From contig JBKAGP010000001.1 in assembly GCA_046290465.1 (NCBI GenBank), positions 3,104,001-3,168,000 of the forward strand: a DNA stretch of 64,000 nt, read 5' to 3'. The position numbers were made by a program, and so were the translations under genes. A model generated the notes under the pieces. The model saw only the letters and a list, made by a program, of their open reading frames with translations. It made no database searches and had not been told where the DNA came from. This document shows, piece by piece, positions 28,148 through 38,663 of the stretch (positions are counted from its first letter, which is position 1; each line of letters begins with the position of its first letter). The stretch comes from Planctomycetota bacterium (GTDB lineage: Bacteria > Planctomycetota > UBA1135 > UBA2386).

Positions 28148-29350
28148 TCACCTGCCCACAGCGGGCTTGCGGTAGCGCGTGATCGCAAACCCGATCGGCG
28201 CCGGGCCGGGGTCGTTGCCGCGCTGGTTGAAGCGGTGCGCGCCCTTCCGGGAGCCGAGCGCGACCAGCTCGAAGCGGACCAGATCGCGCTTGCGGTCGTC
28301 GTAGAGGCCCTCGCCGTACAGCTGCGCAGTGATCGACCGCTCGCCGTCGTCCATCGCCACCTCGCCCCCGTAGACGACCGTCGTCATGCCCTTCTGGCTG
28401 GGGCCGCGGCGCATCGTCAGCGAAGCCTTGCGCACGTGCTCGGCCTTCCACGTCGAGGCCTGGCCGCGCACGTTGTCGATCAGCATCTCACGCGCGAGCC
28501 TGGTCACGAACTTGGCGTCGACCGGTTGCGGCTTCGACGACTTCGCCGGCACCAGCGCGCGCCAGTCGTCGACGGCCTGCCAGTTCTCGTTCCACGCCCA
28601 CTTGGTGAACGCCATCCACCCGGCCTTCAGGTGCGTGTCCTTGTCGAACCGGCACTGCTCGCCCTCGCCGCGCGGCAGGTCGCGCGAGTGCACGCGCAGC
28701 ACGAACTCCTGGCCGTCGAGCCGCGCCGGCAGCGTCGTGACGACCTTGGGCACCGGCTCGTTGGCGTAGCCCTTGTCCTTGCGCAGCTTCTCCCAACGCT
28801 CGAGCGCGCGCTCGAGGCGCTCGACGATGTCGTCGGGGAAGCCGCTCGCGGCGAACCGTCCCTCGAGATACTCGCCGTCGGGCCCGATCATGTAGAGGCC
28901 CTGCTTGGTGCCCGGATGGTTCCAGTCGCCCTTCGGCATCGCCTCGCCGAAGCGCTTGAAGAACTGGTGCTCCGGCCGGTCCTGCACGCGCTTCAGGTTC
29001 CACTCGTCCTCCGGGTAGAGCATGTAGACCTCGTCGGCGACGGTGACGAAGTTGCGGCTCAGCTCGGCGATCTTCGGGTCGGACCAGACCAACTGTCGGC
29101 CCCGCACACCGTTGTTTCAGGTGCACCCGAGCGGGTGCCCGTTCATCGTCCAGAACAGGATCGGACGGCCGAGCCGACGCGCCTCCTGCACCGCCGGCCA
29201 CAGCGCGTTGCGCCAGCCGATCTCGCGGTAGCTCTCCTCGTGCGCGGCCGGCTGCACGAACGTCAGCCACTCGCGGAAGTTGTCGGCGTCGGGTCGCGGC
29301 GGGTCCTGCGGAGCCAGGAGCGCCAGGAAGGCCAGGCTGGTCGTCAGCAT
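28148..29350 (-). CDS. Putative selenoprotein A (thioredoxin-like, CxU; Sec at TGA 29119-29117), ~400 aa, probably secreted
   Basis: ORFs 29117..29569 and 28148..29107 share a frame, joined as WTMNGHPLGCT-TGA-NNGVRGR. The paralog at 37503 has the same join and a SECIS-like hairpin follows. Alternative start 29362. Confidence 0.85.
29080..29104 (-). promoter_or_regulatory. SECIS-like hairpin of selenoprotein A
   Basis: GGGCC-GAC[AGUUG]GUC-U-GGUCC with a bulged U; loop starts 22 nt after UGA, G at loop position 2. Confidence 0.7.
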
Positions 29351-29373
29351 GGCCGCGATCATAGCGGCCGCAG

Positions 29374-30249
29374 CTACTGCACGACCTCGAGCAACTCGAC
29401 ATCCAGCTGGTAGATGTCGACGCAGTAGCCGTCGATGTGGGTCTCCTTCACCGAGAGGCGGCCGACCAGCTTGATCGGCTCGAACTGGTAGTCGACGCGG
29501 CGGCCCTCGGCCATCCGGCAGCGCACGATGCCGTGCACGTCGGGCGGCGTGCCGTAGCAGCACGACCACAGCGAGCTGACCAGCAGGAACTCACGCATGT
29601 CCTCGACCTCGTCGAGCGGCAGCATGAAGCCGAGCATCAGCACCTGCAGGCCGTCGAGCGCGCGCACGGCGTCCGGTGCGCCGATGAGACCTTCGGTGTA
29701 CTTCCAGCCGCTCAGTTCGTCGAACGGCAGCACCCGGTCGACCCCGGCGATCTTGCCGTTGGCGATCATCTCCTGCAGCTTCTTCTCGGCCGCCAGCATC
29801 GCCTCCGCAGAACGCATCGCAGCGAGGTCGGCCGGATCGGTACCCTTGGGCAGTTCGCGGCCGTCGGGGTTGTTGCCGCCGGGATTGCTGCCGCCAGGAT
29901 CACCGCCGGCCGGCCGCAGCGGCCCGTCGACGCCGTTCGGCCCACCGACACCATCCGGCGCCTGCGCGACCTCGCGATCACCTGGCGGCGCATCGCCACC
30001 GGAGTCGGCGCGGTTCAGCCGCCACGCCAGCACCGTGACCCCGAGGCCGAGCAGCAGCACCGCGGCGACCAGCATCCGGTAGGCGCTGGCCGACGACCCG
30101 GTGGGCGTCGCCCGCTCCGGCCCGGCCGCGACGCGGGCCAGGATCCGCTCGGCGCGATCCGGAGGCGACGCGCGCTCGGCGAGTTCGTCGAAGGCGTGGT
30201 CGAAGTGTCGCTGCTCGACCGACTCTGGCTCGTGCTGCTGATCCGTCAT
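29374..30249 (-). CDS. Putative anti-sigma factor with periplasmic DUF3299-like domain
   Basis: Coupled to the ECF gene; single TM; ALDGLQVLMLGFMLPLD...EFLLV...SCCYGTPP. Confidence 0.75.
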   Translation of the reverse strand: MTDQQHEPESVEQRHFDHAFDELAERASPPDRAERILARVAAGPERATPTGSSASAYRMLVAAVLLLGLGVTVLAWRLNRADSGGDAPPGDREVAQAPDGVGGPNGVDGPLRPAGGDPGGSNPGGNNPDGRELPKGTDPADLAAMRSAEAMLAAEKKLQEMIANGKIAGVDRVLPFDELSGWKYTEGLIGAPDAVRALDGLQVLMLGFMLPLDEVEDMREFLLVSSLWSCCYGTPPDVHGIVRCRMAEGRRVDYQFEPIKLVGRLSVKETHIDGYCVDIYQLDVELLEVVQ

Positions 30250-30836
30250 GACGACTCCTGTTGCATCCTCCGCTGCACGCATTCGCGCAGCGCCTTGCGC
30301 GCGCGCGACAGCAGCGACTTGATCCCGTTGGCGCCGATGCCGAGGCGGCCGGCGACCTCGCTGCACGACGCGCCGTCGAGGTGGTGCCACTGCACCGCAT
30401 CGCGCATGCGACCGTCGAGCCGGTCTACGCAGCGCCGCAGCAGCTCGATCCGTTCGTCCTCGAGCGCGCTGGCGTCGTCCCGCAGGTATTCGTCGACCTC
30501 CTCGAGCCACTGCACGGTCGGCGGCTCGCGCCGGCTGCGGCGCCGCGCGCCGAGCAGCAGGTTGCGGGCGGTGCCGCGCAGGTAGGCGGCGACATCGACG
30601 ATGCGCTCGCCCGACAGCAGCCGTTCGGCCGCGATCACGAACGCATCCTGCATCAGGTCGTCGGCCTCGTGCGGGTCGGCGCCGAGCAGCCGCAGGTAGC
30701 GCCAGACCATGCGCTGGTGCGCCCGCACCAGGGCGGCGAAGTCGGCCATCACGCCGCTCGCGGCCGGGCCGGGCGCGGGGCGCTCGCTGCGTTCGATTGG
30801 CTGCACGGCGGGCATCGTCTCCGCTGGTGCCCGCAC
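30246..30836 (-). CDS. ECF sigma-70 factor (start uncertain)
   Basis: EADDLMQDAF (region 2), LRRCVDRL...EVAGRLG...IKSLLSRARKALREC (region 4). Confidence 0.9.
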   Translation of the reverse strand: MRAPAETMPAVQPIERSERPAPGPAASGVMADFAALVRAHQRMVWRYLRLLGADPHEADDLMQDAFVIAAERLLSGERIVDVAAYLRGTARNLLLGARRRSRREPPTVQWLEEVDEYLRDDASALEDERIELLRRCVDRLDGRMRDAVQWHHLDGASCSEVAGRLGIGANGIKSLLSRARKALRECVQRRMQQESS

Positions 30837-37502: not shown

Positions 37503-38663
37503 ATGCGCGCCCTCCCCGTGGCCTTCGTGCTGTCGTCGCTGGCGATCTCCGCGACGGCGCAGTCTCCCCAACTCGACCAGGCCCGATTCACCAAGCTGCA
37601 CCGACAGCTGCGCCCCGACCCCGACGCGATCTGGCGCAGCATCCCGTGGCGCATCGACCTGCTCGCCGCCCAGCGCGAGGCAGCCGAACAACGCAAGCCG
37701 CTGTTCGTCTGGGCCATGGACGGCCACCCGCTCGGCTGCACCTGAAACAACGGCGTGATCGACCGTGTGTCGACGTTCGCCAACCAGGAGATGGCCACGA
37801 TGCTGCGCACGCAGTTCGTGCCGGTCGCGATCGACCAGGCCTACGAGCGCCGGCAGCAGGACGCCGAAGGCGAGTTCTACCGCAAGTTCGCCGGGCAGGG
37901 TCCCCGCGGCGACTTCGCAGGAACGACCCAGGGGTTCTACGTGGCGACGGCGGCAGGAGACCTGCTGCTCTACAACAACAACCGCGACCCCGCGAAGGTG
38001 CTTCGCCTGGCGAAACGAGCGCGCGAGCGGTTTGCCGCGAGCCCGGCGGCGAAGGCCGAGGTCGCGTCGATCGACCACGGCCGCGTCGACGCGCGCTACG
38101 CCGTCACCCCGCCCAGCGGCGGCCTGGTCGTCCGGGTGCACGGCAAGGTGCTCGGCGGCTACGCCCCCACGGACGAACCGTTCCAGAAGGCGATGCAGCA
38201 GGCCTTGTCCCGCGACAACCTCTGGATCACGCAGGAAGAACGACAGGCGCTGCTCCGCGGCGAGCTACCGGATGCACTGATGCGTCGCCTCGCGCGCTAC
38301 CACCTCGTCGACGGGACGCGCGGCGAACCACCGATGTGGCGAGCGGACGAGGTCTTGACCCTCGACGTGCATCGCAAGGGCGACCGCGTCTCGGGTCGCA
38401 TACGCCTGGGCACCAAGGACGGCAAGCGTGGCTACGAGGCCTCCTTGCTGGGCTTCGTCGCGACCGAGGGCGAACGCGTCACGCGCTTCGACCTGGTCGT
38501 CGACGGTACGTTCCACGGCGAAGGCCGCTACACGCGAGGCGCCCCGGAAGGAGCGTTCCCATTCGCCGTCGCGTTCTCGCTGGCAGACGGCAGCGATGTC
38601 GCCGACGCGATCCCGCCACAGGGCTCACGCGGCTGGGTCGACGGTTACCTGAAGGCGCGCTGA
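37503..38663 (+). CDS. Putative selenoprotein B (thioredoxin-like, CxU; Sec at TGA 37743-37745), 386 aa, probably secreted
   Basis: ORFs 37233..37745 and 37755..38663 share a frame, joined as WAMDGHPLGCT-TGA-NNGVIDR. Signal peptide present; homologous to selenoprotein A on both sides of the TGA. Confidence 0.87.
37752..37781 (+). promoter_or_regulatory. SECIS-like hairpin of selenoprotein B
   Basis: GGCG..UCGAC[CGUGU]GUCGA..CGCC; loop starts 18 nt after UGA, G at loop position 2. Confidence 0.72.

Follow-up and report, generated by a model that had tools for sequence, protein, structure and literature searches.

A predicted thioredoxin-like selenoprotein gene interrupted by an in-frame UGA in a Planctomycetota genome

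The interrupted gene and its paralog

We analysed a 64,000-nucleotide (nt) stretch of DNA from a Planctomycetota bacterium (GenBank assembly GCA_046290465.1, contig JBKAGP010000001.1, positions 3,104,001 to 3,168,000), hereafter the window, which belongs to a genome assembled as one 6.59-Mb contig. On the minus strand of the window, a reading frame extends from ATG 29362 to the stop codon TGA 28150-28148, with a sole interruption, an in-frame TGA at 29119-29117, between ...GHPLGCT and NNGVRGRQLVWSDP. A first-pass annotation, made by a model from the letters alone, had read this strand as RPILFWTMNGHPLGCT, the TGA and NNGVRGRQLVWSDP, open down to the stop, and the frame is as it described. We interpret the whole segment (28148..29362, minus strand) as a selenoprotein gene in which UGA is recoded as selenocysteine (Sec), a reading to which we give a probability of about 0.9. 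The predicted product has 404 amino acids (aa) from ATG 29362, with Sec at position 82 (U82), or 400 aa from ATG 29350, with Sec78; residue numbers below are counted from ATG 29362. The assignment of Sec to 29117..29119 draws on the conservation of the column, on its pairing with Cys in relatives and on contigs from four sequencing runs. In an alignment of 49 members (alignment A1), the codon lies in a predicted active-site motif, G75-H-P-L-G-C-T-U-N-N-G85 (29108..29140, minus strand), directly behind strand beta-1 (W71.M73). Gene callers place a start just downstream, at GTG 29107-29105 on the minus strand, and report a 319-aa 'hypothetical protein' (open reading frame, ORF, 28148..29107).

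The first-pass annotation had begun the gene at ATG 29350, which is probably right. Contigs of runs X4 and X6, which represent near-identical strains from two independent runs, keep ATG 29350 and read AAG in place of ATG 29362, so ATG 29350 is the most likely initiation codon, and the alignment of homologs begins at its Met. The N-terminus that follows, MLTTSLAFLALLAP (29309..29350, minus strand), is hydrophobic and, as read from the sequence, a probable export signal; MSKLLLLALLSFPAAALAQ and MRALPVAFVLSSLAISATAQ are examples of the classic signal-like N-termini of homologs. Contigs covering the site in four runs from four studies leave TGA 29117-29119 unchanged. In the long contigs, the changes close to it affect third codon positions and are synonymous (T81 ACC>ACA, G75 GGG>GGC, R62 CGT>CGG), and the further differences are L6V in one run and the ATG 29362 to AAG change in two. 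A 186-nt contig of run X6, with nine differences in 68 nt, was left out as coming from another organism or a paralog.

A paralog is found on the plus strand at 37503-38663, with its Sec codon TGA at 37743-37745 and its stop TGA at 38661-38663, and the two Sec codons share one aligned position. The 17-mer that had been singled out as identical in both genes, TGCACCTGAAACAACGG, is present in exactly two copies in the window, at 29109-29125 (minus strand) and 37737-37753 (plus strand), and had no match in 100 shuffles; this nucleotide identity is largely explained by amino-acid conservation together with GC-rich codon use. An alignment of both read-through products, which had been proposed as a check, matches end to end, before as well as after the TGA (29% identity, E 5e-29), from residue 1 to about 395. 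The description of the flanking residues as strongly diverged applies to the proteins overall but not to the immediate flanks, W.M.GHPLGCTUNNGV, which are conserved at the protein level. The suggested expansion of the family fares similarly: a scan of this genome returned two copies only, while other Planctomycetota genomes contain up to seven matches. In some genomes tandem pairs, each gene with its own TGA, point to local expansion of the family (locus L043, 2789-4027 and 4213-5505; also G191:C42:50058-52272).

Conservation of the UGA and the selenocysteine machinery

Relatives were fetched from genome collections, translated with TGA as U, and each mapped to residue 82. The residue-82 column is TGA in 53 of 53 mapped homolog segments, which represent 50 distinct proteins from Planctomycetota and Armatimonadota loci. 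Among 91 genomes of the same GTDB family, there were 99 match rows, and 91 of the 92 that span residue 82 carry a TGA (any in-frame TGA being counted); seven of the eight rows that lack one fall short of the residue. In a sample of the phylum restricted to genomes at least 80% complete, 82 of 251 Planctomycetota genomes (64 of 198 genera) had a match at E <= 1e-10. Counted in the same way, 119 of the 123 site-spanning rows in this sample (131 rows in total) carry an in-frame TGA, and only 4 of the 12 rows without one span the site. Matches are also present in metagenome-assembled genomes (MAGs) of Armatimonadota. The coding sequence is conserved on both sides of the in-frame UGA. Alignment A1 has invariant columns at W71, M73, G75, H76, P77, L78, T81, U82, N84, G85 and R89, with P38, W50, P67, W71, M73, G75, H76, P77, L78 and T81 invariant upstream of the TGA, and the family motif can be written W.MNGHPLGCTUNNG. 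The 'CxU' label of the first-pass annotation is accurate for U, whereas the Cys two positions before it is not universal, being Cys80 in 45 of 49 aligned members and Gln in four.

Searched exhaustively with HMMER, 1.84 billion representatives yielded 1192 matches (clusters) at E <= 0.001. The best 150 of these 1192 fall into three groups, namely C-terminal ORFs beginning just past the TGA, N-terminal ORFs whose last residue is 81, and stop-free full-length proteins. In the Sec column of the stop-free homologs (26 aligned), Cys is found in 9, Ser in 7, Asp in 3, Ala and Gly in 2 each, and Arg, Asn and Tyr in 1 each. The conserved UGA thus aligns with Cys in stop-free relatives, a Sec/Cys pairing, and the lack of UGA/Cys conservation in orthologs that had been named as grounds for abandoning the idea is not what we observe. 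Purifying selection on the UGA, as the annotation had suggested, agrees with the TGA column in 53 of 53 segments and with Cys there in 9 of 26 stop-free homologs. Two database fragments have W and R at the site within an otherwise Sec-type motif; the W of one, P0225, is most simply explained by gene calling with a code in which TGA is Trp.

The remaining entries look like halves of one protein. The best 120 database relatives measure 281-329 aa, apart from one 690-aa fusion, cover 69-79% of the query, and are unnamed or labelled 'hypothetical protein', without a Pfam family. C-terminal halves appear as ORFs of about 310 aa. The short proteins ending at GHPLGCT that had been anticipated do exist in the databases, as N-terminal ORFs ending at residue 81 (P0159, P0190, P0224 and others). 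In the ESM Atlas, the table-11 ORF of the window gene belongs to clusters that are likewise labelled 'hypothetical protein' and lack a Pfam family. Split halves of this kind are the usual trace of a misannotated selenoprotein (PMC13188914, section 6).

The genome encodes the machinery for Sec, with all four components above their curated cut-offs: a tRNA-Sec with anticodon TCA (5914319-5914413; 72.8 bits, cut-off 47), selB (575812-577683; 353.7 bits), selA (453.1 bits) and selD (352.1 bits), the last with its own in-frame TGA. On the genome, selD and selA are immediate neighbours on one strand (G000:C1:1309619-1311945), and selB and tRNA-Sec are located elsewhere. Since selA is general in the lineage, with 85 of 91 family genomes and all 31 high-quality ones carrying it, the Sec trait provides no contrast within it.

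Recoding in bacteria is associated with a selenocysteine insertion sequence (SECIS) hairpin after the UGA. The bacterial model (bSECIS) calls for a loop of 3-9 nt with G in its first two positions, an upper stem of 4-16 base pairs (bp), a spacing of 16-37 nt and a minimum free energy of at most -7.5 kcal/mol (PMC13188914, Fig. 2 legend). A plausible candidate in the window gene is GGGCCGAC-AGUUG-GUC(u)GGUCC (29081..29102, minus strand), with 22 nt from the UGA to the apical loop, G then U at loop positions 2-3, and a folding energy of -9.5 kcal/mol (z -1.92; 8 of 200 shuffles fold equally well). The paralog has the candidate UCGAC-CGUGU-GUCGA (37759-37773, plus strand). Across homologs, the hairpins sort into four classes. 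The first has an AGUUG loop with a spacing of 22 nt; the second, spaced by 31 nt, carries a GGUC tetraloop on a GGUCU/AGACC stem; the third has GGUCG or GUC loops 22-23 nt away; and the fourth, to which the paralog belongs, has CGUGN loops with a spacing of 18 nt. Codon entropy averages 0.84 bits in 11 conserved columns of residues 83-99, against 1.24 (standard deviation 0.45) in 81 columns elsewhere, and in this segment 9 of 10 columns lie below the mean for the same amino acid. This lower entropy favors some constraint at the RNA level just after the UGA.

Protein fold and closest known families

The AlphaFold2 model, computed with alignment A1 as input (49 sequences), has a predicted local distance difference test score (pLDDT) of 91.1 and a predicted template modelling score (pTM) of 0.88. 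By AlphaFold2, VIA-align and Foldseek, a thioredoxin-fold domain at residues about 43-196 (28775..29236, minus strand) spans the TGA. In the model, strand beta-1 comprises residues 68-73, Sec82 stands directly before helix 1 (residues 83-90), and thioredoxin elements continue to about residue 196. Against 48,161 chains, the best VIA-align match to residues 43-196 is 3f9u_B (Z 12.8, root-mean-square deviation 1.9, 108 aligned), followed by a Thermus thioredoxin, AGR3, 3ira, DsbH, 7tkv and DsbD-gamma; Foldseek agrees. The modelled Sec82 thus occupies the classical redox position, at the N-terminus of helix 1 in a thioredoxin fold of the DsbD-gamma/DsbH type.

The second domain, residues 203-404 (28151..28756, minus strand), is beta-rich and conserves RDLPR, WAWN.NW, DNVRGQ and FNQR motifs. 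Modelled alone with AlphaFold2, it reaches a pLDDT of 89.5. Among solved structures, VIA-align gave a best Z of 7.6 (NspA) and none of 8 or above, and Foldseek had no match at E <= 0.001. This best Z was to outer-membrane beta-barrels, and the Foldseek rows (streptavidin, START domains) stayed at noise level, so that we assign the domain to none of these folds. A search of PDB sequences with the family profile returned 0 matches. In an ortholog from a genome of the same genus, P0022 (L045 295-2694, minus strand, the same as L023), the frame continues without a stop into a beta-lactamase (PF00144), for about 800 aa, as the result of either a real fusion or the loss of a stop.

Profile databases place the family only loosely. 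The window protein has no Pfam match even at E <= 10, and hence none at the gathering scores of PF13899 or PF03190; among the 49 members, Thioredoxin_7 (PF13899) responds weakly in 12 (best E 0.0033) and Thioredox_DsbH (PF03190) weakly in 2. NCBIfam has no significant match for the window protein either. Its sole responding selenoprotein models are those for VPGUxxT (NF041382 and NF041383), which pick up 7 and 5 of the 49 members over about 70 residues around Sec. The scores are 14-20 bits against cut-offs of 350 and 275 (best E 0.0064 and 0.00055), with 14.2 for the paralog, 19.7 at best and none for the window protein. VPGUxxT proteins ('hypothetical protein OS_HP5' in Table 1 of PMC13188914) resemble the window family in looking exported, in their N-terminal Thioredoxin_7-like domain and in having Sec just before helix 1, but their motif is VPG-U-x-x-C/T rather than G-C-T-U-N-N-G. 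The genome's own VPGUxxT member has an MsrA-like second domain and a second Sec, whereas the window family has a beta-rich domain without a clear relative. Compared by hhalign, the two gave a probability of 2.3%, in the thioredoxin region only, so that they are at most distant relatives. This VPGUxxT member is a type-2 thioredoxin-like protein of 357 aa (349 bits; G000:C1:4807037-4807906; L073 1399..2472, minus strand), and from its sequence it appears to be a double selenoprotein, with in-frame TGAs in VPGUSTC and in GMSUFWEGE, an MsrA-like active-site motif.

The closest systems in structure are the DsbD-gamma/DsbH/Thioredoxin_7 oxidoreductases (PDB 3f9u, 2ju5, 1vrs, 7tkv), which share the fold (Z 12.8 to 9.1, Foldseek E 4e-4 to 1e-2), a redox residue at the N-terminus of helix 1 and an extracytoplasmic location, export being predicted for the window family. 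They differ in using C-x-x-C where the family has C-T-U (Q-T-U in 4 members), in lacking the additional 200-aa C-terminal domain, and in showing no significant sequence match. The Trx7/PDZ selenoprotein (NF041199; PMC13188914, Table 1) is likewise of Thioredoxin_7 type, metagenomic and apparently secreted, but it has CxxU and a PDZ domain, and none of the 49 members matches NF041199 at E <= 10. Thioredoxin_3 'Sec.1' of the same table, compared by its table description only, is thioredoxin-like and shares the rare C-x-U spacing; PF13192 (Thioredoxin_3) has no match at E <= 10 among the 49 members. The name 'selenoprotein A' used by the first-pass annotation should not be taken for the glycine reductase protein (GrdA, PF04723), which we rejected for want of a Pfam match and for a motif of CxxU rather than CxU. 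Glutathione peroxidase (PF00255) gave no match at E <= 10 in the 49 members, a result that leaves room for peroxidase-like chemistry.

A 2026 review (PMC13188914) lists 119 selenoprotein families in its Table 1, with CxU in a rhodanese form, a UshA-like protein, a ferredoxin-thioredoxin reductase and Thioredoxin_3 'Sec.1'. The window family is absent from this table, and none of its CxU entries fits. A full-text literature search found no description of the family, although the candidate lists of Deng et al. 2026 (Cell Rep) could bear on priority. The BSepDB paper, in the part available to us, builds on known lists. In the supplements of the GOS paper, the motifs GHPLGCT, NGHPLG and CTUNNG are all absent, and its 'GOS_A' is a different protein.

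Competing readings and possible function

Most likely, the locus holds one gene that databases cut in two at the TGA, encoding one exported thioredoxin-like protein with Sec in its active site. The selenoprotein reading of the first-pass annotation is sustained by the complete Sec machinery, by TGA in 53 of 53 segments, by Cys in 9 of 26 stop-free homologs and by the location of the site, where helix 1 of a thioredoxin fold begins. A number of observations weigh against it, most of them concerning the SECIS element. The window hairpin agrees with most features of the bSECIS model, but its upper stem of 3 bp plus a bulged U falls short of the 4-bp rule; in a strict bSECIS scan, passed by 32 of 50 sequences, the only pass of the window gene is a poor hairpin at spacing 35. 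RNAalifold over 49 sequences gave no consensus structure and no covariation support. Folding energy after the UGA is not lower than in synonymous-codon shuffles (mean z -0.42, window gene +0.50), z-scores from dinucleotide shuffles of 66-nt windows are not significant, and Rfam returned chance-level rows only for 28950-29250. Conservation counts carry limits of their own: TGA was mapped to the Sec column in the 53 fetched segments only, while 91/92 and 119/123 refer to any in-frame TGA, and the profile for the phylum sample was built from Sec forms, which favors finding Sec forms. As for the protein, the window gene's N-terminus is without a basic n-region, which makes export less certain for this copy, and in the weak hhalign alignment U82 falls opposite the second Cys of U-x-x-C and not opposite its Sec, which makes the exact catalytic register tentative.

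The weakness of the SECIS statistics also speaks for two separate genes, in which termination at the UGA would produce a small N-terminal peptide and GTG 29107 would start an independent 319-aa protein. Gene callers yield exactly such products, the best 120 relatives are truncated 'hypothetical proteins', and N-terminal ORFs end at residue 81. We nonetheless regard this arrangement as highly improbable. The TGA lies between beta-1 and helix 1 of one thioredoxin fold (pLDDT 91), and since beta-1 precedes the TGA and helix 1 follows it, a split would cut that fold in two. The frame is kept across the TGA in all 53 segments, and homologs without a stop run through unbroken, 9 of 26 having Cys at the site. 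GTG 29107 is itself the codon of Val86, inside the NNGV motif, and as homologs have GTC, GTT, GTG or ATT there, a start at this codon is not conserved.

Equally improbable is that a suppressor tRNA or near-cognate read-through inserts a standard amino acid (Trp, Cys or Gly) at the TGA. The W of the P0225 fragment could be cited in its favor, but that residue is most simply the product of a TGA=Trp gene call, and in stop-free relatives it is Cys, not Trp, with which the column pairs. The genome has all parts of a Sec system, and both paralogs end at TGA, so the codon is a working stop in this genome. The 'read-through' of the first-pass annotation is better described as Sec recoding than as generic read-through. 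A pseudogene or assembly error with a chance nonsense codon, for which nothing speaks other than the presence of the stop codon, is for practical purposes refuted by conservation of the TGA across two phyla and in contigs of four independent runs, by the paralog sharing the feature and by the synonymous nature of neighbouring changes.

Taking the gene as a selenoprotein gene, its product is probably an exported selenol oxidoreductase. The genome's own SelA, SelB, SelD and tRNA-Sec would recode TGA 29119-29117 as Sec, presumably directed by a hairpin within 40 nt after the UGA, and give a two-domain selenoprotein of about 400 aa that is predicted to be exported. Once outside, the selenolate of Sec82 could act as a nucleophile on an oxidised substrate (disulfide, sulfenate or peroxide), for which the C-terminal beta domain would probably be the holding part. 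Cys80 (45 of 49 members) or an external thiol (the four Gln80 members) would then resolve the Se-S or Se-O intermediate, and re-reduction could come via a DsbD/CcdA-type membrane transporter; a gene for such a transporter exists elsewhere in the genome, unlinked to the window gene. This thiol/disulfide or peroxide-reducing mechanism is offered tentatively, with rather less than even confidence in its particulars.

The neighbourhood brings in another possible role. Upstream on the minus strand lies a gene with a DUF3299 domain and a long N-terminal extension (29374..30243; PF11736, E 5.8e-10), whose stop is 11 nt before ATG 29362. The same-strand row is headed by a gene for a sigma-70 factor of the extracytoplasmic function (ECF) type (30246..30836, minus strand; Pfam Sigma70_r2 and r4_2), and the two products (29374-30836) may form a sigma/anti-sigma-like pair. 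At its other end, the window gene converges on a sodium:solute symporter gene. The two-domain module also exists as the C-terminal part of Ser/Thr kinases (P0160 and P0170; by alignment P0169, P0200 and P0209) and behind FecR (anti-sigma) domains (P0261; by alignment P0265 and P0266), where it is presumably extracytoplasmic. In most of the kinase- or FecR-fused copies, the Sec/Cys site is occupied by Ser, Asp, Ala, Gly or Tyr.

Such fusions, together with the position of the window gene behind ECF sigma and DUF3299 genes on the same strand, would fit a module that senses redox state or a ligand and signals to these two neighbours, instead of a thiol-disulfide enzyme. We consider this unlikely. 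When the three neighbours were compared with 52 loci by tblastn, only one locus, of the same genus (L049), repeated the sigma/DUF3299 context, and Pfam found no recurring partner among 30 flanking ORFs in 13 other loci; a function based on an operon was rejected on these grounds. Because most fused forms have lost the redox residue, they say little about the Sec forms. A more specific version is that the family is a near-obligate Sec module for redox sensing or relay outside the cytoplasm, in which Sec forms are original and fused copies derived, with the window copy reporting periplasmic oxidant or selenium to the ECF sigma factor and the DUF3299 protein. This would be less likely still; if true, it would make the protein a selenium-based envelope stress sensor, a role assigned to no selenoprotein in the 2026 catalogue (PMC13188914).

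Whichever role an exported Sec protein of this kind has, thioredoxin-fold selenoproteins are already known as a kind, and the window family appears to be uncatalogued, and it is not rare. Its unusual features are the C-x-U spacing, the near-exclusive use of Sec and a second domain without a clear solved relative. Recognizing the family would correct hundreds of gene models and give the selenoproteome of two little-studied phyla a further, common member. A third use would be as a test case for why a family stays almost wholly Sec (119 of 123 site-spanning matches in the phylum sample), for C-x-U chemistry in a thioredoxin fold, and for the diversity of bacterial SECIS hairpins within one family. 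The Armatimonadota homologs, from MAG loci of Fimbriimonadaceae and Chthonomonas (L027-L042), are 51-57% identical to the window protein, compared with 29% for the paralog in the same genome, and because they are so much closer than the paralog, the sequences suggest that a gene of this family was transferred between phyla.

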